A stretch of 29,351 bases of DNA from a virus: positions 1 through 29,351 of the IMG/VR virus record IMGVR_UViG_3300012352_000279; one strand, written 5' to 3'. This document shows positions 2,541-29,294 of the stretch, piece after piece. The notes beneath the pieces are model-generated. The model made no database searches, was not told where the DNA came from, and saw nothing but the letters and a program-made list of their open reading frames with translations. Both the position numbers and the translations under genes were made by a program. The number at the start of each line of letters is the position of its first letter. Positions within the stretch are counted from its first letter, which is position 1.

Positions 2541-2571
2541 CAAATATATGTATTAAATTTAATACGACAAT
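2541..2571 (-). promoter_or_regulatory. host-type (Bacteroidota sigma-A-like) promoter: ATTG-N19-TATATTTG
   Basis: Minus strand reads ATTG TC GTATTAAATTTAATAC A TATATTTG. The -7 box is at 2541-2548 and the -33 TTG at 2568-2571. It lies about 30 nt upstream of ATG 2511 and directly downstream of the late-operon terminator. Confidence 0.55.
2550..2565. promoter_or_regulatory. perfect 16-bp palindrome GTATTAAATTTAATAC filling the promoter spacer (candidate operator)
   Basis: GTATTAAA / TTTAATAC are exact reverse complements. The palindrome sits between the -33 and -7 elements. Confidence 0.45.
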
Positions 2572-7275: not shown

Positions 7276-7306
7276 AACTATAATGTTAATCTTAAAAAAA
7301 AGTTCA
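7276..7306 (-). promoter_or_regulatory. late-type bipartite element TGAAC-N15-ACATTATAGTT abutting ATG 7275
   Basis: Minus strand: TGAAC TTTTTTTTAAGATTA ACATTATAGTT ATG. TGAAC starts 1 nt after the terminator U-tract. Confidence 0.45.
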
Positions 7307-7307
7307 C

Positions 7308-7333
7308 AAAAAAAGGGAAGCTATTAACTCCCC
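7308..7333 (-). terminator. rho-independent terminator after the tail tube gene
   Basis: Minus-strand RNA: GGGGAG-UUAAUAG-CUUCCC (6 bp, one G-U) followed by UUUUUUU. Confidence 0.55.
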
Positions 7334-7354
7334 TCTCTTTATTTACAAGGTATT

Positions 7355-7864
7355 TTATGCAAGTAATCCTGCAATGATTGTTGGGTCAACTTCGTAAGCT
7401 AAGTTCTCGTTTTCTGCGATGAATGTAACAGAATATTTTGAACCGTCTGCTTTTGCTGTTCCTGAACCCTCAGCAGTTGCTGAAAGTTGAGCATAAGGGA
7501 AGTACCAAAATTTACCGTTAGCATCTTTAACGATGATAGCTAAGTCTCTTTGTCCCTCTGAAAGGATTTTTATAGCCTTAGATTTTGAAGCCTCACGTCT
7601 GTGGAACATCAAAGTAATTGTAGCTGTAACAAATGAAGAACCGTTTGCAAAGTCTACTGCTGACTCTTCGGTAAAATTACCTGTGTTACGTCTAAATTCA
7701 AATACTTCGTATGGTTCTGTGACTGTTTGAGCGTCAACCATGTAAGCAGTTTGGTCAATTGTTGGAATTCCTACGTTGTCCATATCATTAATATAGATAG
7801 CAGTAATTCCTCCGATATTGTTATCACAAGATTTTGTGATTGCTGTAATTGTTGTACATGCCAT
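7355..7864 (-). CDS. probable major tail (tube) protein (169 aa)
   Basis: N-terminal C..NIGGI..IYI and central ...IIVKDANGKFWYF... patterns resemble siphovirus tail tube proteins. The gene is bracketed by terminators, as expected for a highly expressed structural gene. Confidence 0.45.
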   Translation of the reverse strand: MACTTITAITKSCDNNIGGITAIYINDMDNVGIPTIDQTAYMVDAQTVTEPYEVFEFRRNTGNFTEESAVDFANGSSFVTATITLMFHRREASKSKAIKILSEGQRDLAIIVKDANGKFWYFPYAQLSATAEGSGTAKADGSKYSVTFIAENENLAYEVDPTIIAGLLA

Positions 7865-7880
7865 GGGTTTAAAATTTTAT

Positions 7881-7912
7881 AAAAAAAGGAGGGAAGAATT
7901 AACCGCCCTCCC
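7881..7912 (-). terminator. rho-independent terminator after the capsid gene (symmetrical A7/T6 flanks, potentially bidirectional)
   Basis: GGAGGG (7888-7893) pairs with CCCTCC (7906-7911) around a 12-nt loop. Flanked by an A7 run on one side and a T6 run on the other. Confidence 0.6.
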
Positions 7913-7935
7913 GTTTTTTAAGTTAATAATTATTA

Positions 7936-8853
7936 TTATGAGTAAAGAACGATTTCAGTTGGGTTAACGTAAGAGAAACCTACTTTCAAGTTTGCACGTG
8001 AACGTAAGTAAGGCTCTGCAACTGTATCAGCTAAGTTAACTGCTTTGATTGCTTTTCCGTCTCCCTCGCCATCGAAAGCGTAAATCATGTTATTTTTAAC
8101 AGTCGCTACCATGTGGTTGCTTGGCATACCCTCAGCTACAACAACTTTAATACCTAAGAAAGTCAAAGCTAATGGAGTTGTAATGTATGTTTGAGTGTTA
8201 CCTGAAGCTGTAGCCAATTCTAAAGCGTTAGCAACATTCGAAGCAACGTATAAACGTAAGTCTGCTTTTTTACGAGAAACTGTTGACGGTAAAGCGTTGA
8301 TTACTTTTACGATTTCAGCGATAACGTTAGAACTTGTAATTGTAGCTTTTGCTACGTCGATGATTGCTGTATCAGCTTTCATTTTTTTAATGTAACCATC
8401 ACACAAAGCCAAAGTATCATCTTCGCTTGCTGTGTCTCCTTGCCAACGTAACAACTCAACGTCTTCGCCAATTTGTTTCGCCATTTCTCCCCAGTAGAAG
8501 TTCATGAAAGAAGCTACTGAAAAATCTCCGTTTGAACCTTGAGCCATTTGCAAAGCTAAGAAAGACTGCTCTAAGTCGAATTGACAAAGTTGAGCCATTG
8601 CTGACAATGCACATACGTCGATGTCTACTGCGTCTAATGAATCAGTTGGTGCTGTAAAGTTACAAGTTGATGCTTGTAAGATGTTACCAAAAGTAACGTT
8701 TGCTAATTTAGTAGCACTTTTAATTCCTGGCAAAGTACGGTAGTTGTCTACTGTATCTTCAGCTAAGTAAGAACGACCGTAAAACTCGTTCGGGTTTGGA
8801 CACAATAATGCGTTTGTTTCGATGTCCAAGTCAAATTTTAAATTTCTTTCCAT
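7936..8853 (-). CDS. major capsid protein (HK97-fold type)
   Basis: 305 aa. Immediately downstream of the protease/scaffold gene and followed by a strong terminator. Its composition and pattern look like phage capsid-family proteins. Confidence 0.65.
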   Translation of the reverse strand: MERNLKFDLDIETNALLCPNPNEFYGRSYLAEDTVDNYRTLPGIKSATKLANVTFGNILQASTCNFTAPTDSLDAVDIDVCALSAMAQLCQFDLEQSFLALQMAQGSNGDFSVASFMNFYWGEMAKQIGEDVELLRWQGDTASEDDTLALCDGYIKKMKADTAIIDVAKATITSSNVIAEIVKVINALPSTVSRKKADLRLYVASNVANALELATASGNTQTYITTPLALTFLGIKVVVAEGMPSNHMVATVKNNMIYAFDGEGDGKAIKAVNLADTVAEPYLRSRANLKVGFSYVNPTEIVLYS

Positions 8854-8857
8854 TTTG

Positions 8858-9835
8858 TTATTTTTTAGAAAATGCGTCTCTGAACGCGTTAAATTTTTCG
8901 TGAGCTGATAATTTAGTTTCTTTTAATTCCTCTTCGATAGGCTCAACTTCTACTTCTAAAGAATTTTTTAATTCTGCAATTACTTGCAACAATTCGTTAA
9001 CTTTTTCGTCTAACAAAGGTGTAACGATAGCTAAAATAGCCTCAGCGTCTGCTGTTGGGTCGACTGCCATTTCAACTTCTTCAGTTGCGACTTCTTCCTC
9101 AACAACTTCCTCAGTTGCCATTTCTTCTTCTACTACTTCTTCTTCGATTACTTCAGTTGCCATTTCTTCCTCTACTACTTCCGTAGCAGGCGCATCTAAT
9201 ACCTCGATAACTTCCCCGCCTTTTACAACGTAGATTTTACCTTCGATTAAGTGCTCTCCATCTGGTAACTTCATACTATATTGATTATTTAATTCCGTCT
9301 TTTGTTCGTTCAATTTCATGCCTAAGAAACCTTCAATCGAAAACCCTACTTGGTTACTCTTTACAAGTTCATTGTAGTAATCTTCGTCAGTTACTTGAGC
9401 GGTCAACATTAAAGTACCTTTTGGTACGTCAATACCGTACGCTTTCGCTTTGTCGTTTTTAGGGTCTTGAACTATCCACGCTTCTAATACATAAGCAGGA
9501 ACTTTGTTTTCCGCATCATGCTCAATGTTAAAAATATCTTTGTTAGATAAATTTGACATAAACTTAGCGTGTATCTTTTCAATCTCTTCGGCTGTAAATG
9601 ATACAAAGTACTCTTCACCCTCGTCGTTTCTATAAATCTCCATAGGAATCATAGCAGGTGCAACGATACGCATTTTAACCTCGTCAGCAAAGTACATTTG
9701 TTCATGTGAATTGAACGCTACTCCTTTAACTTTAACCGCAGGACGTGACGTAAAGGCAATCATTTCGATTCCTAAGTCTTCGCCCTCGCTATATTCAGGG
9801 TCAATAGTAATTTTGTAAGTAGGCAATTTATCCAT
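8858..9835 (-). CDS. XkdF-like prohead protease fused to an acidic scaffold-like C-terminal domain
   Basis: The N-terminal ~180 aa (FTAEEIEKIHAKFM...FNIEHD...VGFSIEG) resembles the XkdF/Peptidase_S78_2 family. The C-terminal third is an E/V-rich repeat plus a helical tail. Confidence 0.5.
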   Translation of the reverse strand: MDKLPTYKITIDPEYSEGEDLGIEMIAFTSRPAVKVKGVAFNSHEQMYFADEVKMRIVAPAMIPMEIYRNDEGEEYFVSFTAEEIEKIHAKFMSNLSNKDIFNIEHDAENKVPAYVLEAWIVQDPKNDKAKAYGIDVPKGTLMLTAQVTDEDYYNELVKSNQVGFSIEGFLGMKLNEQKTELNNQYSMKLPDGEHLIEGKIYVVKGGEVIEVLDAPATEVVEEEMATEVIEEEVVEEEMATEEVVEEEVATEEVEMAVDPTADAEAILAIVTPLLDEKVNELLQVIAELKNSLEVEVEPIEEELKETKLSAHEKFNAFRDAFSKK

Positions 9836-9867
9836 ACTTATTATGTAGATATAAAATTATTTGTTCA
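9836..9867 (-). promoter_or_regulatory. late-type bipartite element TGAAC-N16-ACATAATAAGT abutting ATG 9835
   Basis: Minus strand: TGAAC AAATAATTTTATATCT ACATAATAAGT ATG. Confidence 0.45.
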
Positions 9868-9874
9868 AAAATTG

Positions 9875-9882
9875 TATATTTG
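9875..9882 (+). promoter_or_regulatory. host-type -7 box TATATTTG for the plus-strand gene pair
   Basis: Identical to the -7 box of the three minus-strand early promoters. It ends 15 nt before ATG 9898. No good -33 element at the usual spacing. Confidence 0.4.
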
Positions 9883-9897
9883 TTAAAAAATTAGTAT

Positions 9898-10440
9898 ATG
9901 GTAACAATTGGAAAAAATGAAATCCCTAACAAGTCAACTGAGTTGAGCGTTAAGCAATTTTCAAAAGTGAATGAAATTTTAAGAAGTGAAAACGAACCTA
10001 TTGAAAAATGGTATCAAATTTTTACGTACTTAGGAGCGGACGAAAGCGACATTAACGACCTAGAATTTGACGAGTTCAAAGAGGTTGTTCGTCTTTTTAA
10101 CGATAGCGAAAGTAAGGACTTAGAAATTCAACGCACTATTGAAATTGACGGATACACTTACGAAGCGTACAAAGAAGAGTTTAAGGTGTCAGTAAAAGAC
10201 TTGAAAGCAATTGAGAAATTAATCGCTAAGAATCCAAACTCTTATATTGCTGAAATGGTTGCGGTGTTATATAAGCGTACCGACTTAACAGAAAAAGAAC
10301 ACTACGAACCTGCACACATCAAACACAAAACTACTTTGTTTGCTGACCAAAAGGCTTCGTTTGCTTTACCTATCATTTGGCACGTTGCTAAAAAAATGAC
10401 GAATGAAATAGAAAAAGCTGAAGATGAAAGCGTGGAATAA
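9898..10440 (+). CDS. acidic hypothetical protein A (180 aa); tail-assembly-chaperone-like or accessory protein
   Basis: Long ORF on the otherwise empty strand. By my count it has 37 D/E versus 25 K/R. Shares its motif order with the next ORF. Confidence 0.6.
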   Translation: MVTIGKNEIPNKSTELSVKQFSKVNEILRSENEPIEKWYQIFTYLGADESDINDLEFDEFKEVVRLFNDSESKDLEIQRTIEIDGYTYEAYKEEFKVSVKDLKAIEKLIAKNPNSYIAEMVAVLYKRTDLTEKEHYEPAHIKHKTTLFADQKASFALPIIWHVAKKMTNEIEKAEDESVE

Positions 10441-11143
10441 TGTAACAGTCGAAACATTCATGGAGTTAAGGGGGTTGGAAACAATCCCTTTTGATTCTCC
10501 TTTTGATTTGGAACTTGAGAGGCTGTCAATCTTAACCGATACCGACATAGAAGAGTTGCAAAATTTAGACCTATCCGAGTTTAGTAAGTTAACAAAAGAG
10601 TATGCTTGGGTAAAATCCGCACCCGCAAAGAACTTTAAACAAGAAATAAACGGGTTTCACTTTAAAGAATGGTACACGCTCGGGGAGTTTATCGACTTAA
10701 ACCATCTATTTGAAAACGAAGCGCAAAACTTTGACAAGATTCTAAGCATTTTATACCGAGTTTTTAAGCAAGACGAATGGGGCAACCGTGTTTTTGAACC
10801 TTTACACTTTGACTTAGAACAACGCAAACATGAATTTAAAGACGTTTTAATCAATGATTGCTTTGGTGGTGTGGTTTTCTTTGTTGAGTTTAGGGATAAC
10901 TTCTTAAAAGTTTACGAAAATCTGTTTAATCCTGTTGTTGAAAGTGACGAATTAGAAGATAATGACTTAGACCAAGAAGATATAAAAGCCGAAGAAGAGG
11001 AAAAGAAACTATCTAAGTTTAGCTGGGAACGTTTAATATTTGATTTGAGCGGTGGGGATTTGACAAAGGTAGACCAACTTACTGACCTACCTATTATCTT
11101 AGTGTTTAATATGCTTTCAATGAAGCAAACTTACGGAATTTAA
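10424..11143 (+). CDS. acidic hypothetical protein B (239 aa), distant paralogue of protein A
   Basis: Overlaps A by 17 nt. Shared motif order: (L/V)(S/T)V..F ; L(E/D)(F/L)(D/S)EF ; EI(D/N)G(Y/F)x(Y/F) ; (V/L)(A/S)(V/I)LY(K/R). Has an extra acidic stretch (ESDELEDNDLDQEDIKAEEEE). Confidence 0.6.
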   Translation: MKAWNNVTVETFMELRGLETIPFDSPFDLELERLSILTDTDIEELQNLDLSEFSKLTKEYAWVKSAPAKNFKQEINGFHFKEWYTLGEFIDLNHLFENEAQNFDKILSILYRVFKQDEWGNRVFEPLHFDLEQRKHEFKDVLINDCFGGVVFFVEFRDNFLKVYENLFNPVVESDELEDNDLDQEDIKAEEEEKKLSKFSWERLIFDLSGGDLTKVDQLTDLPIILVFNMLSMKQTYGI

Positions 11144-11580
11144 AAGAACGGTGTTTGTGGTGCTTTCGGTAAATTCGGGTAAGGACTATCTATCCAATTG
11201 AATTGAATACTAACTTTAGGGTTATTAAGTATTCGAGCCATTTCCAAAAGAGGGTATTTCTTAAACTGCCATGCGATATATTCCTGAGTTACTTCAGCAA
11301 GAATAGCCTGTACATCGCTACGTCTTAACCAACTATCTGTTATTGAATAAGGCGGTATCATTTGTTCGCCATCTCTTTCTGTTCCCTCATCTAAAAACAA
11401 ATAGTAAAACATAGCATTAATCGTCATGTTAATCGTGTTTAATTCGTCCCCTGTCATTGCTGAAATTCTAATCGAATCATATAACGCACCATCAGCATAC
11501 AACCCAAGCGATAAAATCTCTTGCTGTAATGCTCTCGCTAACTTGTTTCTTGTAGCGTATTGAACTTTAAAATTTGCCAT
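11140..11580 (-). CDS. HK97 gp10-like neck/tail-completion protein
   Basis: YADGALYDSIRIS ... FYYLFLDEGT resembles the DTGxLxxSI ... Y.xxxE.GT signature of the HK97 gp10 family. Confidence 0.4.
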   Translation of the reverse strand: MANFKVQYATRNKLARALQQEILSLGLYADGALYDSIRISAMTGDELNTINMTINAMFYYLFLDEGTERDGEQMIPPYSITDSWLRRSDVQAILAEVTQEYIAWQFKKYPLLEMARILNNPKVSIQFNWIDSPYPNLPKAPQTPFF

Positions 11581-11582
11581 GT

Positions 11583-12026
11583 TTAATCTCCTATCTCAAA
11601 TGGTATATCCTCAACACAGTATTGGTCAACTTCAAACGTGATGCTCATTTGCCACCCCGCTACGTAATCTAAATCAAAGTTATTGACTGGGATTAACGTA
11701 GGTGCTTGAGCGTCTATGCTTAAATCTGACCCTTGACTGAAGTACAAATATAAGTCATTTAAAATTAAATTCGTATCACTTAAAATAGTGTTTATATTAG
11801 CACGGTCTTTTTGTATAATATCCACACAATAAATATCCATAGCAAAGATATTCGTATTTTCTCCCATCGTTTGACTAATAGGAACGTAAAAAAGCAAAGG
11901 ATACTTTTCGTCTAAGGTGCTAAAGTTTGGCATCTGTTCTCTGAACTCCCCCGCGTTTTTCTTAATCTGTAAATGTTGTTGACAAAACCCGTCAATCGCA
12001 TTTAATAGTTTTATGTAGCTTGTCAT
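11583..12026 (-). CDS. hypothetical structural protein (147 aa)
   Basis: ORF track. ATGA-coupled to the tape measure gene. Confidence 0.5.
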   Translation of the reverse strand: MTSYIKLLNAIDGFCQQHLQIKKNAGEFREQMPNFSTLDEKYPLLFYVPISQTMGENTNIFAMDIYCVDIIQKDRANINTILSDTNLILNDLYLYFSQGSDLSIDAQAPTLIPVNNFDLDYVAGWQMSITFEVDQYCVEDIPFEIGD

Positions 12027-14080
12027 AGTGTAGAACCTAAATCGATTATTTTCATTTTATTTTGTGTCGCTGTAATTTCAGTTTCACTTACAACCGCTTG
12101 TACTGTTACCGTTTGATTTGATTGCATTGATTGACCTGTTAAATTGTTCGCGTTGTTTCCTTGTCCAAACATATTAATTGACGGTGTAGCTACCGAAGCA
12201 CTTGAGGCACTTGCTGAAGTACCGCCACCACCACCCGAAGCCGAAGCACTCGGATTACTTAATAATGCTTTAGCCTTTGCTACGTTCGTTAAGATTTGAA
12301 CGATACCCGAAGCGTATTGTGCTATTCCTGCTGTTCCACCAGTTACCGCATTTAATGGGTTTGCTTGAGACATTGCAACGAGTGAACTAATAGCCTTTGC
12401 TGTATCGATTGCGATTTGAACTAAAGCAGTAGCCTTTTGGAATTTCTCAAGTTTCTTTTGGTCATTTATGAATATTTTACCAAGTTGATTAATACCGTCA
12501 TTAACTTCAGTTGCAAAATTTAATAAAGCATCACGTTTATTTTTTGCTTGTTCAATACTTTGTAAAGCGTATTTCTTTTGAATGTCAGCAGTTTCTTTTG
12601 CTATTTGGTCTTCGATTGCTTTTGTATCTTCCCCGTATTTTTTAGCTTCTTCTAATAGTGTAAAATATTTGTCGCGTACTGCGTTAATCTCCCTATCTTC
12701 TGCTGAAAGTTGAGCGTCTGCTATTGCTGTTTGTTGTGCTTCGTAACGTGCTAAAAACTCGTTATATGTTTCTTGTTCTTTTATTTTAGCTTCTTGAATA
12801 CGTGCGTCTTCTTTCGCCTTTTTGTCGGCTTCTATTTTATCAGTCTCAGCTTGTTGTTGTGTCTCAAGTTGTTTAATGATTATAGCTTTTTCACTTGCTA
12901 AATATTTCTCGTTCTTTTGAGTTTCCTCAATTGCACGTTTGTACTTTAAGTTTATAGTTGCTATTTCTTTTGCTTCGCCATCTGCCATTATAGCGATGTT
13001 CGCATCTTCAATCATTCGAGCAACTTCCTCACGATTCTTTGCGTATTCTTTTTGCGCTTCAATTCGTTTTTTATTAGCCTCTTTTCCAGCATCAACACTT
13101 TTCTTATGCGCTTCGTCCTCAGTTTTTTGAGCATCAACAACGTGTTTCTTTTTAATGTACTGTATTTCATTGTTTGAAGTAGTCATTAAAGTACGTTGTT
13201 CTTTTAGTTTCGCCTTTAAGTCTGCGACCTCTTTAGCGTCATAGTCTCCCGAAGCTACCATATTTTGGATTCGCATTTGGTAAGCCTTTGCATAAGCGTA
13301 AGCCGTCGCTTTAATCAACCGTTGTTTTTCAAGTTCTAACTTGTAAGTGCTTTTACCCTCAAGTTGAGCCATTCTTATTTCTTGGTCGATTGCTCCTATT
13401 CTTTTATCTGAAGCATCTTTGTAAGCATCTGCTTTTTTCTCTTGTGCTTGCATTGACCTTTCTGCGGCTTCCTCTTCAGCAAATGAAGTTAAGCCTAACC
13501 AATCTAAAAAGTCTTTGATATTTTGAATTACAACTTCGATAGCATCGCCAATTGCTCCAAAGAAATCGCCTATCGCTTTTAATACGGGTTTAAGTAGTCC
13601 GAGTTTAGACATTAATGCCACAATGATAGCAACGATACCCGCAATGATAGCACCGATTATAAAGATTGGATTTGTTAAAAGTGTAGCACCAAACGAAACG
13701 AAAGCCTTTGCCATCGTTCCAACAATAGAAATTAAACCTTTTAATTGTGTGCCTATTTCTTGAGGTGTAATTGACTTTAAGTTTTTTGCAAATAATTTAG
13801 CCGAAGTTGACGCACCTTCAAAATCCAAGTCTCTAATCTGTGACCCCATTAAGCCTAAAGCATTGCTTGTACTTTCAAACTTTGAACCGGTTGAAAATAC
13901 TGCTACTTGTTCATTAGCATCTTTTAGTCTATCGTTTAATTCCCCCGCTCTTTGTGCAAGTTGTTGCATTTGTTCGGGGTCTGTAGCACTTGCTAACTCT
14001 CCTTTTATTTCTCGTATTTCCTTTTTAAGTTGCTGAAGCCCGCCTAACTTAATTGGAATTTCTATTGCTTGTTGTGCCAT
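12023..14080 (-). CDS. tail tape measure protein
   Basis: 685 aa with the usual tape-measure layout: N-terminal coiled coil, hydrophobic Gly-zipper segments (IFIIGAIIAGIVAIIVALM, GDFFGAIGDAIE), a long K/E/A-rich coiled coil and a G/S/A-rich C-terminus. Confidence 0.65.
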   Translation of the reverse strand: MAQQAIEIPIKLGGLQQLKKEIREIKGELASATDPEQMQQLAQRAGELNDRLKDANEQVAVFSTGSKFESTSNALGLMGSQIRDLDFEGASTSAKLFAKNLKSITPQEIGTQLKGLISIVGTMAKAFVSFGATLLTNPIFIIGAIIAGIVAIIVALMSKLGLLKPVLKAIGDFFGAIGDAIEVVIQNIKDFLDWLGLTSFAEEEAAERSMQAQEKKADAYKDASDKRIGAIDQEIRMAQLEGKSTYKLELEKQRLIKATAYAYAKAYQMRIQNMVASGDYDAKEVADLKAKLKEQRTLMTTSNNEIQYIKKKHVVDAQKTEDEAHKKSVDAGKEANKKRIEAQKEYAKNREEVARMIEDANIAIMADGEAKEIATINLKYKRAIEETQKNEKYLASEKAIIIKQLETQQQAETDKIEADKKAKEDARIQEAKIKEQETYNEFLARYEAQQTAIADAQLSAEDREINAVRDKYFTLLEEAKKYGEDTKAIEDQIAKETADIQKKYALQSIEQAKNKRDALLNFATEVNDGINQLGKIFINDQKKLEKFQKATALVQIAIDTAKAISSLVAMSQANPLNAVTGGTAGIAQYASGIVQILTNVAKAKALLSNPSASASGGGGGTSASASSASVATPSINMFGQGNNANNLTGQSMQSNQTVTVQAVVSETEITATQNKMKIIDLGSTL

Positions 14081-14112
14081 ACTTATAATGTATAGTAAAA
14101 ATTAAATGTACA
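14081..14112 (-). promoter_or_regulatory. late-type bipartite element TGTAC-N16-ACATTATAAGT abutting ATG 14080
   Basis: Minus strand: TGTAC ATTTAATTTTTACTAT ACATTATAAGT ATG. The -35-like part overlaps the last codons of the 890-aa gene. Confidence 0.4.
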
Positions 14113-16774
14113 ACGTAACTGTAATTATAAAGCTACGCGTGTAATCACTTGGTAAAACGTCGTTTTCAGACGTGCTACTTTTGTAAGTATTAATAAATAG
14201 GTTATCTCCCTCACAGTAATACTCTACAAAGTCTTTATCTAAAATTCCGTTCGTGTTTTCAATGCTATAAACTACATTCTCAAACGAATCAGTAATTCCG
14301 TAATCCTCAAGGCTAAAACCTGATAAAGCATATTCGCCTTTATCAATGTAACTTGGTGTGATATTAAATCCTAAAGTATTAATCAACTCCACAACCTCAG
14401 GCGCATTAGTTCCGCTTTGTGTTAGCTTAGCTACATATACCTCTTTGTTAAGTTGTGGCACACCGTTAATTACATTCGCTGTAATTGATTTTACGACACT
14501 TTCGCCATCGTTTGCAGTTTGTCCTATTTCTCCAGTTACAGAACCGCCACCGCTTACCACATTGTTGTTGTTAAAGAACTTGTCAATAACATCGCCTATT
14601 ACTTGAGTAGTTCCCGTGTAAGGTTGTTTAGGTTTTGTCTTGAATGGTGGTAAGTCTACTTCGTCGTCAATTGTTAAAAGTTCAACTTTCGTTAATTGGT
14701 TCGTGTTTGCGTTGTAGTCATTTATTGAATTAATAGACCACCAACTGTTATTAATACGTATTTTATCATTCAACTTTAGATTAGCTATGTCATTCGCTCT
14801 TAAATCAAAATAAGCGGTTAACATTTTACCTTTGTTAATTTGGTTTACTGTACGTCTCCAATAAATATTATAAAGGTTATTCGCTGTTAGGCTTAACGGA
14901 TTGTAAAAGTAATAGTCACACGTTGCGTAATTAATGTCAAATGTAGGTGTTAACGGATTGTCGAAGTGTGTAGCGTATGAATAGTGGTTATCTTCTACCG
15001 TACTACCTACGTAATTCTCAATGATATAATTAGCAGTAGAAGTAGTCAACTCCCCATCGTACAAAATACGTATGTTAGTGTTAGGACTTGCACCGCTCAA
15101 TGCAGGAACATAAGCACCAAAAGTGGTTTTTAAAATTGGTGTCGGACTAAATGTTAACTCTTTGCGCTCTTCGTCTTTGATGTATTCGTTGTCAAAAGTA
15201 AAAGATACTTGACCGTAAACCTCGTTAATCTGAGCAAAGTAAGTTTTATTAATATCGTCCGAATCCTGCTTATATGAAAGTGTTAATTTCTTTTTTGTTA
15301 ACTCAGGCAAGAATGTAATTGATTGCTCACGGTCTTTTGCGAGTTTCTTAGTCCAATCCTTAACCGCTCCGCTATCGTAGTAATTATCACGTGTGATTAG
15401 TATTAAGTTATTCGGGTTTGTTGGGTCAATGTCAACGTATAAATTGTACATATTGAATATCGACTTAATAAAATCCGATTGACGAATCTTTTTAGGTACG
15501 TAAAAATTGACGTCAACTGTTGAGTTGTATCCTGTAATATTGGAACTTGGTGTTAATGTAGCTTCGAATCCTGTAACATTCCAACCAATAGCAACGTTGT
15601 AAGAAGTACCCGAACGCTCAAACAAACCCGTAACACCACAACCTAAATCCAATTTGAATGTAATATCGTCCGTAGTTACTAAGTTGCTTAAATTGACAGT
15701 CGTTAAGATTGACGCTGTGTGTATTGTAGTTGTACCCGTTGCAAGTGTACCCGAATATGTGTAAGTATCTAAAACGATATTTTGTTGCAACACACCGTTT
15801 TTAAATACTTTTAAGCGTGTTTGGTAAATAGCTTGACCACTTTGCCCACCTTGAGTAACTATGTTTAAAATACCCCCACTTGAATTGGTTAGCTTTATAT
15901 TGTAAGTTATCGGAATAGACACCTCAATACTTTCGCCACTCCCTAAATTGAAAGGACTGTTATATACGCCTGTTGTTGGGTCGAATAAGTTATAGTTATC
16001 CTGTGTTTCAGTTACCCCAGTTAAAGGCTCTGACAATCCCGTAGACGCGTTAAAACTTGAATGAGTACCACTTACTGTAAATGCTTTATTGAATATTACG
16101 TTATAAGGACTAAAATCCGTTTTATTAACGTCTCCATTAAAAGGAATTAACAACCTTTCAAAGCGTTCGTTTGCTATTGTCGCCCATGAATAACTAAACC
16201 CAGCACGCGCGAAAATTCTATCGAAGTATTCCTTTGCAAAGATAGCAGGTTTAAACTCTTTTAGTGGGTAAGTGTTTAACGGTGCATACGGTAAAATGTA
16301 CTTATACTTATCCGTGTTTGAGAAGGTATTGATAACCTCATCGGCTGTGAGTAAGTGGTTAAAGTCGCTGAAGTCTAAATCAGTCAACTCAGAACTTCCC
16401 AACTTTGTAAAGAAATCACTTTGCGAATCCTTAACGATTACGCTGTATTCTACGTCCTGCTCAAAGTTGCTTGTAGATTGTAGTTTGTTTACCGCTATCA
16501 ATTGTAAGTAAGCATCTTCAACGATTGGAATTTCGTCTTGTAATACCGTGCAACGTGTTAATGCATTTATGTTAAACGTACCTGTTTGAATGTTAATGTC
16601 GTATAAATGACCTAACAATTGATTGTTGTTGTCGTCCCCTACTAAAGTAATCGTTTTTGAAAATGTACCTTTTCGCGTACTTACATCACGAATATCGGAA
16701 ACCTTAAACGTAATTGGAAAGTTTGACGTGTCCTTTACATTTAGGTATCCGTTTTCTATTTGTATCTTAACCAT
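14102..16774 (-). CDS. large tail/baseplate structural protein (890 aa)
   Basis: Largest ORF. N/T/S/Y-rich, beta-type composition. Adjacent to the tape measure gene. No catalytic motif recognised. Confidence 0.45.
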   Translation of the reverse strand: MVKIQIENGYLNVKDTSNFPITFKVSDIRDVSTRKGTFSKTITLVGDDNNNQLLGHLYDINIQTGTFNINALTRCTVLQDEIPIVEDAYLQLIAVNKLQSTSNFEQDVEYSVIVKDSQSDFFTKLGSSELTDLDFSDFNHLLTADEVINTFSNTDKYKYILPYAPLNTYPLKEFKPAIFAKEYFDRIFARAGFSYSWATIANERFERLLIPFNGDVNKTDFSPYNVIFNKAFTVSGTHSSFNASTGLSEPLTGVTETQDNYNLFDPTTGVYNSPFNLGSGESIEVSIPITYNIKLTNSSGGILNIVTQGGQSGQAIYQTRLKVFKNGVLQQNIVLDTYTYSGTLATGTTTIHTASILTTVNLSNLVTTDDITFKLDLGCGVTGLFERSGTSYNVAIGWNVTGFEATLTPSSNITGYNSTVDVNFYVPKKIRQSDFIKSIFNMYNLYVDIDPTNPNNLILITRDNYYDSGAVKDWTKKLAKDREQSITFLPELTKKKLTLSYKQDSDDINKTYFAQINEVYGQVSFTFDNEYIKDEERKELTFSPTPILKTTFGAYVPALSGASPNTNIRILYDGELTTSTANYIIENYVGSTVEDNHYSYATHFDNPLTPTFDINYATCDYYFYNPLSLTANNLYNIYWRRTVNQINKGKMLTAYFDLRANDIANLKLNDKIRINNSWWSINSINDYNANTNQLTKVELLTIDDEVDLPPFKTKPKQPYTGTTQVIGDVIDKFFNNNNVVSGGGSVTGEIGQTANDGESVVKSITANVINGVPQLNKEVYVAKLTQSGTNAPEVVELINTLGFNITPSYIDKGEYALSGFSLEDYGITDSFENVVYSIENTNGILDKDFVEYYCEGDNLFINTYKSSTSENDVLPSDYTRSFIITVTLYI

Positions 16775-18257
16775 TGATTGCGTTTTGATTTGCTAATTTA
16801 ACAGTTAGCTTTTGCTTAATAAGGTTCTTATTCTTTTGTTTAAAGACTTCGAATGAATTATCTTGTACTAAACAAGCAAAGTATTGACCGTTTACTTTTA
16901 AGTACGTCTGAGGGCTTGTAATTAGTTCCTCGAAATAGATAGCCATTGCCTCGCTCATGTAGTTAGTATTGAGTTCGATTGTCTTTTCAACTTTCGTGTT
17001 TAAATAGGTCATTCCAAAGTCGCTTGTTTCATATCCCCATTTACCGTCTGTGACTGCTCCTTGAATGTCACGGTTATAACTGTCACGTGTGACGTTGCCT
17101 TTGTCGTATGCTCTCAACTGAAAAGCAAAAGAACTAAACGACCCCATGCGGTCTAAGAACAAAATCTCGTAATCTTCAATCTTACAACGTCTATCGATAC
17201 AAACATTGTAAACCTCGCTGTATTCAGTTACTAAGTCGTTGTTAACAAATTGGAATGTGTACCATTCTGTATCGTCTTTGATTAGTCCTGCCGTTCCTGA
17301 AATTACTGTACTCGGATTTGCTGAAGCTCCTACGTTAACCATGCTTGTAACATCGTCATTTGTTAGGTTGTAAACCAACTCATCTCCGTTGCTATTTACA
17401 AATAGAATCGAACCGTTTGTAATGTAGTTATTTGCCAAAGATAAATACAAGTCCTGAGTTGGCGTGATACAGAAACCGTCTAAAGGTTGGTTTGTTAAGA
17501 ACTTAACCGTACTTGTGAGAACTGAATCCAAACATTGTAACGCTTCAAATGTGCCACCGTCTGCGATTACTCTGTCGTAAAACTCCAAATTAAATTGATT
17601 GCTCAAATAATTGTAACTTGAATACGTTGTAAAGTCTGCGAAACTTTGCGCACCATTAAACACTACCATGTCATCGAGTGTGATAATGTCAGTGTCAACC
17701 GTCTTTTGGTTGTTTGCATATCTTACCGTCCCATCAATTGACGTACTTGTCACATCTGAATAAGCTGAATTAACAATGATATAGCCTGAGCCTTGACCTA
17801 TTACAGTAAAATAGCCTTGTAGGTTTGGATTTGCTACCCCCCCATCTGCTTGGTCAATATAAACTTGGTCGCCTATAACAAACGGATTTGTAAACGTAAT
17901 TTTTACGTTACCGCTGTCAGACGTTAAACTACTCGTGTAAGCGTAGCTCTCGACGTACTCTTCGCCTACCTTTAGAAAGTATTTAAAGTTCGTGTTTAAA
18001 GCAGTCCCGAAGTTAGGAAACAAAGGATTGAAATCGTTTGTAACGTAAGATTGTAAAATACGCGATAGGTCAATGTTACCGTATCCGTTTGGATAGTCAG
18101 GCAACACTTTAAATTCTCCTATTTTTGCGCTTGTCGTTGCATTGTAAAGCGTGAATATATACTTAAATCCGTCTTTGTTTTTGTTAGTCGAATCGTATAT
18201 AAAACGCAATTGGTTAAATGCAGGACTAAAACTGTATGGAACTGCTATGGTATTCAT
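16767..18257 (-). CDS. tail structural protein (496 aa)
   Basis: ORF track. Lies in the fibre/baseplate block. 8-nt overlap with the downstream gene. Confidence 0.4.
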   Translation of the reverse strand: MNTIAVPYSFSPAFNQLRFIYDSTNKNKDGFKYIFTLYNATTSAKIGEFKVLPDYPNGYGNIDLSRILQSYVTNDFNPLFPNFGTALNTNFKYFLKVGEEYVESYAYTSSLTSDSGNVKITFTNPFVIGDQVYIDQADGGVANPNLQGYFTVIGQGSGYIIVNSAYSDVTSTSIDGTVRYANNQKTVDTDIITLDDMVVFNGAQSFADFTTYSSYNYLSNQFNLEFYDRVIADGGTFEALQCLDSVLTSTVKFLTNQPLDGFCITPTQDLYLSLANNYITNGSILFVNSNGDELVYNLTNDDVTSMVNVGASANPSTVISGTAGLIKDDTEWYTFQFVNNDLVTEYSEVYNVCIDRRCKIEDYEILFLDRMGSFSSFAFQLRAYDKGNVTRDSYNRDIQGAVTDGKWGYETSDFGMTYLNTKVEKTIELNTNYMSEAMAIYFEELITSPQTYLKVNGQYFACLVQDNSFEVFKQKNKNLIKQKLTVKLANQNAING

Positions 18258-18550
18258 GCGAATAAGTGTTTCGGATTGTTTGGTGTTATTGCGTTATCGA
18301 ACTCAATCTCTAAGTCAGTCATAACGTCAACGTGGTAGCCTTTCAAGTACGTAGCCTCTTTGATTACTTTCATGTCCTCAACTACTGCGGGAGTGTCTAC
18401 TATTTTACCTATGTAAACTACTGCGTGAGTACTTTGTGCGTACGTGTTAATCTCGTTACCCTCTTTATCAGTTGTGTTAATCAAAACGCCTTTAGATAAT
18501 AAATCAGTAATTGCGCTATCGTGGTCGGTGTATATTAGTTTGTAAATCAT
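18254..18550 (-). CDS. hypothetical protein (98 aa) in the tail-fibre block
   Basis: ORF track. ATGA overlaps at both ends. Confidence 0.55.
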   Translation of the reverse strand: MIYKLIYTDHDSAITDLLSKGVLINTTDKEGNEINTYAQSTHAVVYIGKIVDTPAVVEDMKVIKEATYLKGYHVDVMTDLEIEFDNAITPNNPKHLFA

Positions 18551-19779
18551 ATCGTAGTAAGTTGTGCTAGTTGTGTGTTAGTTAATCGTGTTTTCCAAAG
18601 GGAAGCGGAGTTAATTGGACTGACAATAGTTTGAGCCCCATTTGTAAATACATCAAAACCCAATCTACTTAAAGTTCCGCTTATTGTTGTTGTGCTTGTT
18701 GAACCTGCACTTGTTCCATTTATATACAAAACAACATCATTATTTTTATAAGCCAATGCAATTTTATATCTAGTTCCTGTTGTGTATGTAGTTGAACCAA
18801 TATTAAACTCTGTACTTCCTGCAAAAACACCAATTGCTCTAATAACTCCTGAACTTGCTAATCTTATAAATGCTCTATTGTTTGTTGTTCCGTCACTAAT
18901 ACTAAAATCTTGTTCATCTGCACTATTTAATTGGGCTTTAACATCTAAAAACAAAGTCCCCTCAGTTTGTCCTATCAAAGAACTAATACCCGTCTTACTA
19001 ATTACATCTGCGTTACGTGTTACACTTGCAGAAGTTGTAGGTATGTAAGAGGTAGCGTAAGAACCCGCTTCGAGTTGTGCGCCCCAGAAATATGCGCTTA
19101 ATGCACCCGTGCCATCATAGTTAGCACCATTTGAAGTGCCTTGTATTGCAACCGAAGCATAAACACCAACACTTGAAGCTGTTTTAGTCATTGTTAATTT
19201 ATACCAACCATTACCAGCATTTTCAGCTTTAAAAGAAACAGGGCTTCCGAAAGTGTGTGTTGTTGCCCATGTGTTAGTATTAACTACATATCCGTGAAAA
19301 TCTATATCGTAATAACCAAAAGATATGTAATTAGCTGTATTTTTTTTAACATAAACACTAAAAGCCAAACCAATAAGTCCACTAAACACAACTTTTTCAG
19401 TATAACTATTACTATTTGTAAATGTGCTATCCGCTATTAAATCTGCTGTTGTTGTTCCATCAGGTGCGGTTGTAGCGTTTCCTGTTATTGTTGCTCTTGT
19501 TTTTAACCAACTTGCATTTGTAAAATCTTCACTATATGTAAAAAGATTAGTTCTTTGTGGCTCAACTAATATACTCGGACAACTTCCGTTTGTGTAGTCT
19601 AAACGTGGTACGTTACTTGCTACGCTTTCAATTAATCCCGATGAATTAACTCTTGTTGCTGTGGTTGCTCTTGTTACGTCTAAGTCGCCCGCTCCGTCAC
19701 TTGGAACAACCGAATACAACTTACTAGCTTTCGTTCCGTTTGGTGTTACAACTAAAGACGCTGTATCTAATAAACTCAT
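18547..19779 (-). CDS. tail fibre / receptor-binding-like protein with a LamG-type C-terminal domain
   Basis: The N-terminal LDVTRATTATRVNSSGLIESVASNVPRLDY...CPSILVEPQRTNL resembles phage fibre N-termini. The C-terminal RYKIALAYKNNDVVLYINGTSAGS resembles a concanavalin/LamG jelly roll. Confidence 0.45.
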   Translation of the reverse strand: MSLLDTASLVVTPNGTKASKLYSVVPSDGAGDLDVTRATTATRVNSSGLIESVASNVPRLDYTNGSCPSILVEPQRTNLFTYSEDFTNASWLKTRATITGNATTAPDGTTTADLIADSTFTNSNSYTEKVVFSGLIGLAFSVYVKKNTANYISFGYYDIDFHGYVVNTNTWATTHTFGSPVSFKAENAGNGWYKLTMTKTASSVGVYASVAIQGTSNGANYDGTGALSAYFWGAQLEAGSYATSYIPTTSASVTRNADVISKTGISSLIGQTEGTLFLDVKAQLNSADEQDFSISDGTTNNRAFIRLASSGVIRAIGVFAGSTEFNIGSTTYTTGTRYKIALAYKNNDVVLYINGTSAGSTSTTTISGTLSRLGFDVFTNGAQTIVSPINSASLWKTRLTNTQLAQLTTI

Positions 19780-20144
19780 ATTTCTAAATTATTTAATGTT
19801 TGTACTAAGCAATTTTCAGCTTCAATCGTTCCGCTATCTGTTGCTATTCGTGTTTTAAAAGTGTTAATCAATGTCATCGTTGCGCCAATCTCAGACGCTA
19901 AAGCCTCAATCCAAGAACCGTTTACAGTACCGGTAGCACCAAAGTCCTCAGCTAAAGCCTGTATAAAACTTTCGCCCAAGTCTACGTTGGCATCGAAGTA
20001 AGTACACAACGCTTGTTGATAGTTTCCGTTTTCAGCTACAATGCCAAAGTGACCCGCTATCGTTTGCCACCAATCGCCATTCGTAGTCGTTTCTCCTAAC
20101 ACGTTTGCAATTTCTTGCACCCAATTTTTAAAAGTGTTTTCCAT
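19776..20144 (-). CDS. repeat-containing fibre-associated protein (122 aa)
   Basis: About five tandem ~17-aa repeats of the form (W/F)x(Q/E)x(I/L)Axxx(G)xxxxNG(D/S/N). First gene after a late-type element. Confidence 0.5.
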   Translation of the reverse strand: MENTFKNWVQEIANVLGETTTNGDWWQTIAGHFGIVAENGNYQQALCTYFDANVDLGESFIQALAEDFGATGTVNGSWIEALASEIGATMTLINTFKTRIATDSGTIEAENCLVQTLNNLEI

Positions 20145-20176
20145 ACTTATAATGTGTTCAAATTTTGTTTAGTTCA
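20145..20176 (-). promoter_or_regulatory. late-type bipartite element TGAAC-N16-ACATTATAAGT abutting ATG 20144
   Basis: Minus strand, directly after the TerL TAA: TGAAC TAAACAAAATTTGAAC ACATTATAAGT ATG. Confidence 0.45.
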
Positions 20177-21736: not shown

Positions 21737-21913
21737 TTATAGTGCGTAATGTGTTAGAAATTCGTCTTCGCTTATCATGTCAATTGATATGCTATTGTGG
21801 TCGTCAGGAAAGTTATAAATAACGAAATGTGTCTCGCTATCTTTTAGCATAGTCATTATTTCGTATGCTCTTTTCTGCATATTCTTACCGTAGCAAATTA
21901 AAAAGTAAGTCAT
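21737..21913 (-). CDS. hypothetical protein (58 aa)
   Basis: Below the track cut-off. My translation: MTYFLICYGKNMQKRAYEIMTMLKDSETHFVIYNFPDDHNSISIDMISEDEFLTHYAL. ATGA overlap with the upstream stop (21910-21913). Confidence 0.4.
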   Translation of the reverse strand: MTYFLICYGKNMQKRAYEIMTMLKDSETHFVIYNFPDDHNSISIDMISEDEFLTHYAL

Positions 21914-22137
21914 TCCTCTTCTTGTTGTGGTTTTGCTTTTCTTGTTCGTGTTTTTTTAGGCTTTTCCTCTTCAATCCCTACAAATTTTGTAGTTTCAAAG
22001 ATATGACCGAACCCCATTGCACGTAAATAGTTGTGTTGACTTGGCTTTACCTTATCAATTTCGATTCTGACTTCACCTAAAATGCTATCGTATTTAGAAA
22101 TTACTTTTCCGTAGTATTCCGCTTTAATTTTGCTCAT
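21910..22137 (-). CDS. hypothetical protein (75 aa) with a basic C-terminal tail
   Basis: ORF track. C-terminus is KPKKTRTRKAKPQQEEE. Confidence 0.55.
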   Translation of the reverse strand: MSKIKAEYYGKVISKYDSILGEVRIEIDKVKPSQHNYLRAMGFGHIFETTKFVGIEEEKPKKTRTRKAKPQQEEE

Positions 22138-22155: not shown

Positions 22156-22704
22156 TTAATTTTTCAACAATTGTTCAAGCTCCCGAAGTTCCTTTTTGAT
22201 TTCTGTTATCATTCCGTGTGCTGTTCCTACGCTAATATCGAAGTGACTTGCTAATTCTCTTATTGTGTATGCTTTTTCTTTCTGTTTTGACAACCTTAGA
22301 AACGTATCGAAGTACACTCGCTTTACTTTATCGGTTAAGCTATCTCTGTATATGTCTAATATAGCTTTGTAACGGTTTATGTTTAGCTCAATTATTATTG
22401 CGTTCGTGTTTTCGTCGTCTACTATTTCAGCTATGTAGTCATTTTCTACGCTTGTTATTATTTCTAACTTGCTTTTTGACTGCCATAGTAACTCACATTT
22501 GATTAAATGACTAAAATAATACTTGACCTCATGGTCTAAAGTTGGTGTTTTTCCTTTGATGTCGTGTTCAATATACGAAAGGTAGGCATTGTTAATGACA
22601 GTATCGCAGTCAAGGTTGGATTTTAGTCTACTCAGAAAGTAATGCGTATATCTGCTTACTTCGTTGTAGTTTTCTGTGAGTAGTTTATCGAGGATAGCTT
22701 TCAT
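22156..22704 (-). CDS. sigma-70-family (ECF-like) factor / late transcription regulator candidate
   Basis: 182 aa. The C-terminal LTDKVKRVYFDTFL...YTIRELASHFDISVGTAHGMITEIKKELRE matches the sigma region 4.2 HTH layout. The size and N-terminal helical part are compatible with region 2. Confidence 0.45.
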   Translation of the reverse strand: MKAILDKLLTENYNEVSRYTHYFLSRLKSNLDCDTVINNAYLSYIEHDIKGKTPTLDHEVKYYFSHLIKCELLWQSKSKLEIITSVENDYIAEIVDDENTNAIIIELNINRYKAILDIYRDSLTDKVKRVYFDTFLRLSKQKEKAYTIRELASHFDISVGTAHGMITEIKKELRELEQLLKN

Positions 22705-25230: not shown

Positions 25231-25261
25231 CAAATATAATGTTTTATTTTTAATACACAAT
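25231..25261 (-). promoter_or_regulatory. host-type promoter ATTG-N19-TATATTTG upstream of erf
   Basis: Minus strand: ATTG T GTATTAAAAATAAAAC AT TATATTTG. The -7 box is at 25231-25238, 22 nt upstream of ATG 25208. Confidence 0.55.
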
Positions 25262-29262: not shown

Positions 29263-29294
29263 CAAATATACTAAACAACTTTCATACTTTCAAA
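29263..29294 (-). promoter_or_regulatory. host-type early promoter TTTG-N20-TATATTTG
   Basis: Minus strand: TTTG AAAGTATGAAAGTTGTTTAG TATATTTG. The -7 box (29263-29270) starts immediately after the TAG of the wrap-around gene. This is the best match in the window to the Bacteroidota -33/-7 consensus. Confidence 0.55.

Follow-up and report, generated by a model that had tools for sequence, protein, structure and literature searches.

Five late elements in the phage genome

The DNA analysed here is a viral stretch of 29,351 nt (IMG/VR record IMGVR_UViG_3300012352_000279, positions 1 to 29,351; hereafter the window), in which the minus strand carries almost all of the genes. Its late region contains a bipartite element, with a -35-like half resembling TTGAAC and a -10-like half resembling CAWTATARG, placed directly or a few nucleotides before the start codons of certain late genes. 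An initial annotation had described four such sites as candidate late promoters dividing the late region into four units, and all four read on the minus strand exactly as it had quoted them. The total was too low by one: a fifth copy, newly found and designated P1, heads the 75-aa, 58-aa, terS and terL genes. The five elements are as follows, with spacer lengths counted to the best-conserved C of the -10 half.

P1, 22146..22178, minus strand: TTGAAC (22178-22173), 17-nt spacer, CATTTTAAAG (22155-22146), 8 nt (aaaaagag), ATG at 22137
P2, 20145..20177, minus strand: (A)TGAAC (20177-20172), 17-nt spacer, CATTATAAGT (20154-20145), then directly the ATG (20144) of the 122-aa gene
P3, 14081..14113, minus strand: TTGTAC (14113-14108), 17-nt spacer, CATTATAAGT (14090-14081), then directly the ATG (14080) of the 685-aa tape-measure-like gene
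P4, 9836..9868, minus strand: TTGAAC (9868-9863), 17-nt spacer, CATAATAAGT (9845-9836), then directly the ATG (9835) of the protease/scaffold gene
P5, 7276..7307, minus strand: GTGAAC (7307-7302), 16-nt spacer, CATTATAGTT (7285-7276), then directly the ATG (7275) of the 116-aa gene; the portal gene comes next

The -35 half thus contains TGAAC in four copies and TGTAC in one. In P1, whose full reading is gagcTTGAAC-aattgttgaaaaattaa-CATTTTAAAG-aaaaagag-ATG, it lies within the last codons of the gene for a 182-aa protein; in P2 it overlaps the terL stop codon, and in P3 it falls within the end of the 890-aa gene. P4 is located in a 62-nt divergent intergenic region, and since its upstream neighbours are two genes on the opposite strand, this region must hold the promoter of the protease gene. 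Junctions in the late region are mostly overlaps of 1-20 nt or gaps of 2-4 nt. Only 8 late-gene starts follow a gap of at least 10 nt, and the element is present at 5 of these and absent at the other 3, in agreement with the initial remark that it occupies some of the few non-overlapping gaps; the accompanying remark that the early regions lack it is true for ATG-abutting copies. No Shine-Dalgarno sequence was found at any gene of the window.

The degenerate 14-mer ACATWATARKTATG matched exactly four times in the window (P2-P5), with a mean of 0.00 in 100 dinucleotide-preserving shuffles, so the element is absent from shuffled sequence; TGAAC-N14-17-ACATWATA gave three matches against a shuffle mean of 0.08. 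TGAAC alone was not enriched and was if anything depleted (48 matches, 70 expected), and the signal therefore lies in co-occurrence at a fixed distance. The 11-mer of the ATG-proximal half, with one mismatch allowed, was not enriched either (10 matches, 11.8 expected). A weight-matrix scan, which the initial annotation had put forward as a check, did not separate true sites from shuffled sequence: a bipartite matrix derived from the family scored the true sites at 11-16 (13.98 for P1) against a mean shuffle maximum of 14.1, and it was dropped as a site caller. Because the loose motifs and the matrix fail against shuffles, the evidence consists of exact repetition, position at the start codon and orthology, and not of motif strength. 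A generic sigma70-type promoter scan returned 57 matches in the window and 60 in shuffles, and the TAnnTTTG box is absent from the gene strand at all five late sites. An RNA hairpin or other structured element was considered and rejected, as no significant RNA structure was found at the late sites (z-scores -1.1 to +1.0).

Conservation of the element in relatives

More than 230 contigs in IMG/VR carry relatives of the window terL and protease. Contigs almost identical to the window, with 100% terL identity, are present in the IMG metagenomes 3300042154, 3300020043 and 3300022305. The element is kept in IMG/VR relatives at all five orthologous junctions, down to amino-acid identities of 55% (protease) and 34% (tape measure), so its loss at such junctions, an outcome raised by the initial annotation, was not seen. 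From the five junctions, 260 distinct upstream sequences were aligned by expectation-maximisation on the ATG-proximal part only. The resulting family logo reads (t)tRAAC, a 17-nt variable spacer and CAWTATARG, with 1.70 bits at C(0), 1.1-1.3 bits at T(5)A(6) and 0.84-1.24 bits at A(-19)C(-18); the roughly 17 positions between the two peaks hold little information. The A(-19)C(-18) peak, upstream of which lies a T-rich stretch, arose unasked, the alignment having used the ATG-proximal part only.

Spacing was measured in 70 divergent representatives, which differ by at least 9 over 42 positions within a junction. The distance from the end of AAC to C(0) is 16 nt in 14 of them, 17 nt in 35 and 18 nt in 6 (55/70 together), and AAC occurs at other offsets in 0-6 cases each. 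In 57 of the 70, 0-2 nt separate the 10-mer from the start codon, which then begins 10-12 nt after C(0); this codon is ATG in 68 representatives and GTG in 2. Placement before start codons is strongly strand-specific: matches to a loose bipartite regular expression located no more than 6 nt before an open reading frame (ORF) start numbered 146 on the gene strand and 4 on the opposite one, the background matches being equal between strands (321 and 366). Conserved half-sites separated by a spacer of fixed length and variable sequence are the pattern expected of sigma-dependent promoters.

P1 is likewise conserved after the sigma-like gene (the 182-aa gene described below) in relatives, frequently lying within the 3' end of that gene's orthologue, for example as TAAAACACGAAT-N11-CATTATAAAC-t-ATG or TGAAAACACGAACaaactaaattCATTATAAgtATG. 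At the 116-aa gene, ATG and GTG are swapped among relatives while the following codons stay fixed, which supports this position as the true start codon. In one clade the terL-junction copy stands 13 nt from the ATG (CAATATAAAT-aaaaacaaaagaa-ATG), and the tape-measure copy of the same genomes abuts its ATG. This clade and the 8-nt gap at P1 indicate that the motif needs no contact with the start codon.

A sigma-like protein encoded at the early/late boundary

A candidate sigma factor gene lies directly upstream of P1.

22156..22704, minus strand: gene for a 182-aa ECF-like (extracytoplasmic function-like) sigma factor, the last gene before the late region, at the early/late boundary; candidate reader of P1-P5

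In sequence searches the 182-aa protein is divergent. The TIGR02937 model (sigma70-ECF) aligns with its full length at E=0.014 and 15 bits, below the cut-off of 42.9, and in Pfam there are only weak helix-turn-helix matches. There is also a weak match to YlxM. Among 95 homologues, Sigma70_r2, Sigma70_r4 and Sigma70_ECF were matched by one each, at about 5e-4. A profile search against PDB sequences gave marginal matches to sigma factors, the best being RpoE with E=0.07; the sole match of a single-sequence search of the same database was spurious and was rejected. An exhaustive profile search placed the homologues in 135 clusters at 50% identity, mostly of 160-200 aa, and a scan of viral contigs for a more distant sigma, P0030, returned no match.

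The structure prediction is more informative. The AlphaFold2 model built from the 95-sequence alignment has a predicted local distance difference test score (pLDDT) of 89.9 (pLDDT 65 with a 6-sequence alignment) and consists of two helical domains joined by a disordered linker (residues 81-93). Among the 50 matches listed by Foldseek against the PDB nearly all are sigma factors, with ECF-type sigmas leading: the top three, full-length and with probability 0.99, are 9n9q_C (RpoE), 9m9e_F and 6dv9_F (SigL), followed by 5zx2_F (SigH) with 0.97. The C-terminal domain superposes on region 4 of E. coli sigmaE bound to -35 DNA (2h27_A, TMt 0.68, root-mean-square deviation 2.8 A), and whole-chain TM-scores reach only about 0.3 because the orientation of the domains differs. 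Matches in BFVD are phage sigma factors, including the ECF sigma of the 7-11-like phage GAP52. The protein therefore models confidently as a two-domain sigma2-linker-sigma4 factor without regions 1.1 and 3, ECF-like by predicted fold, as the initial label of sigma-like had anticipated.

Clade-specific half-sites

Relatives were grouped by the identity of their sigma-like protein to that of the window, and both half-sites were found to differ from clade to clade.

Window clade: -35 half TTGAAC or TTGTAC, -10 half CATTATAAGT
45% sigma identity: -35 half nnAAAC, -10 half CATTATAGTT
44% sigma identity: -35 half AAAAAC, -10 half CAATATA(G/A)
43% sigma identity: -35 half TAAAAC, -10 half CATTATAAGA
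37% sigma identity: -35 half CTAAAC, -10 half CAATATAAGC
25% sigma identity: -35 half TTAACC, -10 half CTTATTAAG

Two of the types are TTGAAC-N17-CATTATAAG for the window sigma and TTAACC-N17-CTTATTAAG for the 25% clade, in which the predicted recognition helix is altered from SAH..ITE to SAL..IND. In a further clade, with about 34% sigma identity to the window, TTAATATAGTT abuts the ATG at three late junctions. Copies within one genome resemble each other more than they resemble the family consensus. Clade-specific half-sites and this within-genome likeness fit a phage-specific reader.

Proposed late promoters with little or no leader

We hypothesize that the phage sigma factor reads the elements as late promoters, whose mRNAs would be leaderless or have very short leaders of 1-3 nt, an interpretation of the sequence that we consider likely. 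Promoter function itself, which we infer together with late timing from the anatomy, spacing and conservation of the element, is highly probable; the assignment of the phage sigma as the reader is reasonably probable. In the proposed mechanism, the sigma gene, as the last of the early/middle block, would probably be transcribed from host-type TAnnTTTG promoters, and its product would direct the host core RNA polymerase to the late promoters. The sigma4 domain would bind the -35 half, (T)TGAAC with its AAC core, and the sigma2 domain the -10 half, CAWTATARG, 16-17 nt downstream. Five promoters and two terminators would then divide the late region into units, whose first cistrons would be leaderless or nearly so and whose downstream cistrons would be coupled by overlap. 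The ECF promoter pattern combines an AAC-containing -35 element, a group-specific -10 element and a 14-17-bp spacer (PMC5758882), and the AAC-core bipartite spacing seen across the family bears out the initial suggestion of phage-specific late promoters with ECF-like geometry.

The position of the 5' end would follow from the geometry of the element. Since at most sites only 0-2 nt lie between the conserved -10 half and the start codon, the 5' end is expected at the start codon or no more than about 3 nt before it. A sigma70 reading, which would destroy the start codon at the abutting sites, does not allow this, so the model needs an ECF-like geometry in which C(0) lies near -10 to -12. In sigmaE, C-10 is the flipped base. 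With such a geometry the A of the ATG (offset 10-12), usually preceded by a pyrimidine, would be the natural +1. For comparison, transcription in phage 7-11 starts 6-9 bp from the -10 element (PMC8948821), and phage transcripts are reportedly often leaderless (PMC5312081). Strictly leaderless 5' ends are a possibility towards which the spacing points, and one that we hold only tentatively.

Several observations weigh against this interpretation. Taken as a sigma70 hexamer, CATTAT (with T(5) as T-7) would put the start on or after the G of the ATG. In F. psychrophilum 5.5% of mRNAs are leaderless (PMC9723704), and in B. thetaiotaomicron 3.7% of the 5' UTRs (untranslated regions) are shorter than 10 nt (PMC7366714); given this scarcity in Bacteroidota, a late programme that relied on leaderless mRNAs throughout would be out of the ordinary for the phylum. 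The 182-aa protein falls short of the curated Sigma70_r2, Sigma70_r4 and sigma70-ECF sequence cut-offs, and its assignment as a sigma factor rests on the modelled fold. The initial comparison with ECF promoters stands for the AAC core and the spacer of about 16 nt and fails for the other half, since the window has CAWTATARG in place of the ECF-type CGT or GTC and only the leading C is shared; because ECF -10 elements are group-specific (PMC5758882), this lowers and does not exclude ECF membership. The covariation of half-sites with sigma clade is inseparable from the shared ancestry of whole genomes. No clear AAC is present at 16-18 nt in 15 of the 70 representatives, nor at the terL junction of two relatives (L176 and L182). 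Before the protease gene of relatives, TTGAACAAATATAC is the reverse complement of a host-type TATATTTG box serving the divergent gene, so that conservation of TGAAC at this junction is confounded and is not independent evidence. The family weight matrix, finally, holds too little information to find sites in a 29-kb AT-rich genome.

Among the other explanations, the one that survives best is that the promoters are read by an ECF-type sigma of the host, or by the host holoenzyme with the 182-aa protein acting as an activator of the RinA/ArpU type. We regard it as unlikely. The AAC core and the 16-17-nt spacer are generic ECF features (PMC5758882), several ECF sigmas are present in Flavobacteria (PMC9723704), the location of the 182-aa gene just before terS is that of RinA (PMC3152322), and the sequence evidence for a sigma identity is sub-threshold. 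However, the protein models as a full sigma2-linker-sigma4 factor that aligns end to end with holoenzyme ECF sigmas and with phage sigma factors. Both half-sites also vary with the clade of this phage protein, and the greater likeness of copies within a genome than to the family consensus fits a phage-specific reader.

A signal at the RNA level, whether a processing site or a context for translation initiation, is improbable. It would label the first cistron behind each non-overlapping junction of long polycistronic late mRNAs, in a host without Shine-Dalgarno pairing. Few transcripts would carry it at P5, just after a strong conserved terminator, or at P4, where no co-directional gene lies upstream; it would leave the AAC at a fixed 16-18 nt across a variable spacer unexplained, and the late sites have no RNA structure. 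Such a signal would suit the closeness of the ATG-proximal half to the start codon (0-2 nt in 57/70 representatives), the lack of Shine-Dalgarno sequences in all window genes and the presence of the element at junctions without overlap-based coupling, but copies 8-13 nt from the ATG retain the motif and three other late junctions with gaps of at least 10 nt do without it. That the repeats reflect chance, or are recombination or module-boundary repeats without a role in expression, is barely credible: loose versions of the motif are common in the AT-rich window DNA and the junctions do separate gene modules that differ between relatives, but the exact 14-mer, conservation at five junctions in divergent relatives, the 146 to 4 specificity for strand and start codon, and half-sites conserved around a variable spacer, unlike a recombination scar, all speak against it.

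Two known types of phage promoter were considered and rejected. A phage RNA polymerase with a T7-like TATAG start was discarded, as no RNA polymerase gene was recognised in the window, whose 890-aa and 496-aa proteins match no family, and the genome is only about 29 kb. A T4-type late promoter, suggested by TATAAATA in one clade, does not agree with the conserved -35 half or with the closeness of the element to the ATG.

Returning to late promoters read by the phage sigma, their most far-reaching form would be that every late unit in this large uncultured family consists of a phage-sigma promoter fused to a start codon, with a first cistron that is 5'-AUG leaderless, later cistrons coupled by overlap, and promoter and sigma co-evolving by clade. 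This is conceivable, though we would sooner doubt than assert it. If true, the phage would have a self-contained mode of expression, independent of both Shine-Dalgarno sequences and the host primary sigma, in a phylum with otherwise few leaderless mRNAs. Confirmation of the main interpretation would define the late-gene switch of an abundant uncultured family of freshwater phages of about 30 kb, and would extend the phage sigma factors by a divergent ECF-like family that sequence models overlook. It would also provide natural, matched sigma/promoter variants of at least five specificity types and a test bed for leaderless translation in Bacteroidota, whose ribosomes work without Shine-Dalgarno pairing. 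In practice, the motif could flag true start codons and operon boundaries and so improve annotation, and orthogonal expression parts for Bacteroidota might be derived from it.

Comparison with known systems

The closest characterised system is that of Salmonella phage 7-11 with its sigma gp47 (and also phiEco32 with gp36). In 7-11, gp47 reads eight bipartite late promoters of the form GTAAtg-N16-aCTA (PMC8948821). As proposed for the window phage, a small phage sigma in 7-11 and phiEco32 sends the host core RNA polymerase to several phage-specific late promoters; both consensus sequences are bipartite, the 7-11 spacer being 16 bp, and the window similarly has five copies of one consensus, all in the late region, with the sigma gene at the early/late boundary. 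The 182-aa protein, moreover, has the sigma of the 7-11-like phage GAP52 among its structural matches. The systems differ in promoter sequence, in phage family and in host phylum (Enterobacteria versus probable Bacteroidota). In 7-11 and phiEco32 transcription begins 6-9 bp from the element, in a study that makes no mention of leaderless transcripts (PMC8948821), whereas the window element abuts the start codon. The phage-encoded-sigma mechanism is thus already known, and the nearly leaderless layout is what is unusual.

With bacterial ECF systems (group 4) the window shares the AAC core of the -35 half, a 16-17-bp spacer within the range of 14-17, the two-domain sigma2/sigma4 architecture (PMC5758882, PMC6648896) and close adherence to the consensus. 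It differs from ECF systems in that P1 lies at the 3' end of the sigma gene and not upstream of it, hence with no obvious autoregulation, and in that the 182-aa sequence is below the Pfam and NCBIfam cut-offs. No anti-sigma partner was identified for the 182-aa protein.

Leaderless mRNAs are exemplified by lambda cI transcribed from PRM and by leaderless genes of actinobacteria. The window shares with them a -10-like element about 10 nt before the start codon and a preference for ATG (68/70 representatives). Here, in contrast, to judge from the geometry, every late unit would open with such a first cistron, an arrangement kept throughout a large phage family. In Cluster K mycobacteriophages, the start-associated sequence (SAS) is one 13-bp motif with a presumed role in translation. 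Like the window element it is a short conserved motif repeated a few nucleotides upstream of some start codons; unlike it, the window element has two parts at a promoter-like distance, comes after terminators and goes together with a sigma gene.

Promoters of the Bacteroidota primary sigma have a -33 TTTG and a -7 TAnnTTTG (PMC7366714, PMC9723704), and median 5' UTRs in this phylum are 24-32 nt (PMC9723704, PMC7366714). The same genome has four intergenic TATATTTG boxes of this type, and the host RNA polymerase core would be common to both promoter classes. The late element differs in its lack of TAnnTTTG and in its distance to the ATG, which is 0-8 nt as against about 15-120 nt for the boxes. 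No description of this late motif or of this sigma family was found in the literature searched.

Proposed transcription units, terminators and host-type boxes

Two intrinsic terminators lie in the late region.

7308..7337, minus strand: intrinsic terminator (hairpin and T-run) before P5, ending 1 nt before the P5 -35 half
7881..7912, minus strand: intrinsic terminator after the capsid gene, ending the P4 unit

The first is the terminator that had been noted 1 nt before the site now called P5, and it was found again here; at the 116-aa junction the succession of hairpin, T-run and element is kept in most relatives. With the elements, the terminators would delimit the following units.

Unit P1 (22178-22146): 75-aa gene, 58-aa gene, terS and terL
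Unit P2 (20177-20145): 122-aa gene through the 890-aa gene
Unit P3 (14113-14081): 685-aa tape-measure-like, 147-aa and 146-aa genes
Unit P4 (9868-9836): protease and capsid, ending at the terminator 7912-7881
Unit P5 (7307-7276, after the terminator 7337-7308): 116-aa gene and portal, onwards towards lysis

Overlaps between cistrons within units suggest translational coupling. A conserved 169-aa gene (7355-7864), whose product starts MAC or MSC, stands between the two terminators and has neither the late element nor a host-type box; judging from its position, it would be expressed only through terminator read-through.

Eight intergenic TAnnTTTG boxes were found in the window. Four of them read TATATTTG and lie about 15-120 nt upstream of early-type genes and of one plus-strand gene, and none is at a late site. 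The host-type promoters that the initial annotation had distinguished from the late element are therefore real.

25231..25238, minus strand: host-type -7 box TATATTTG, 22 nt before the erf gene
29263-29270 and 2541-2548, minus strand: further TATATTTG boxes, early-type
9875..9882, plus strand: host-type Bacteroidota -7 box TATATTTG for the divergent gene at 9898, adjoining the P4 -35 half

The early promoter at 25231-25242 reads ACATTATATTTG and has ACATTATA in common with the late element ACATTATAAGT, so that the main difference between the two classes of promoter is TTTG versus AGT at the 3' half of the box.

The plus-strand box at 9875-9882 drives two plus-strand genes of unknown function (180 and 239 aa; window 9836-11143) that lie inside the minus-strand late region. 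The window has a partial duplication at the P4 region, TTTTTAACAAATATAC followed by TTTTGAACAAATAAT. In relatives L099-L160 the TATATTTG box overlaps the -35 half of the protease promoter on the opposite strand (GTATATTTGTTCAA), and because of this overlap the host-type and the late protease promoters may be mutually exclusive.

Genome layout, relatives and host

The order of genes along the minus strand, with the plus-strand pair inserted, is as follows.

About 29147 to 22978, minus strand: replication/recombination block (DnaD-like loader, helicase, NinG, Erf, exonuclease)
After the 182-aa gene, minus strand: 75-aa gene, 58-aa gene, terS-like gene, terL
21737-21913, minus strand: the 58-aa ORF, with a 4-nt overlap with the stop of the 75-aa gene, occupying an apparent 184-nt gap before terS
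After terL: large unknown-function genes, then the 685-aa gene with a weak tape-measure match and two plus-strand genes
After the plus-strand pair: S78/XkdF-type protease, capsid-like protein, portal, and a peptidase or endolysin-like protein

The 58-aa ORF is shorter than the 60-aa threshold for listing ORFs. Gene order between 5591 and 21725 is unusual: the portal gene lies about 13 kb from terL, and the protease, capsid and portal genes come only after terS, terL, the large unknown genes and the tape-measure-like gene.

The late-region DNA matched no GenBank phage, and tblastn of the 182-aa protein against GenBank phages gave no match even at E=1, so that no cultured relative is apparent. 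The nearest terL matches among cultured phages, from Parabacteroides and Flavobacterium phages, are 33-34% identical. From the hosts of these phages, at only this level of terL identity, the host of the window phage is probably a member of the Bacteroidota. A terL scan for the host returned phage contigs in metagenome-assembled genomes (MAGs) with conflicting labels and one 34% match in Hymenobacter. Five of the contigs (L161-L165; terL 65-75% identical) carry the MAG labels Saccharibacteria, Chitinophagaceae, Ignavibacteria and Phycisphaerales, and have the appearance of phage sequences assigned to the wrong bins. The cultured Flavobacterium phage filifjonk9-1 was considered as a carrier of the same system and rejected, having a TATATTTG box about 35 nt before its portal gene.

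A dispersed word, (A/T)AAACACGAAC with the variant AAAGACGAAC, recurs on the minus strand of the window, with copies starting for example at the following positions.

26825, 26323, 24825, 22409, 21951, 21734, 19853, 17995, 14706, 14256 and 1254, minus strand: copies of the dispersed word

With at most one mismatch, AAACACGAAY matches 38 times against 9.4 expected. Every exact copy of the word is on the gene strand, where ACACGAA is found 17 times, against twice on the opposite one. Copies lie inside unrelated early and late genes in all three frames, and one abuts the terS ATG. The word could be Chi-like, or could represent a set of sigma4 half-sites. It is clade-specific, and in some clades it forms the -35 half of the late promoters (TAAAACACGAAY).

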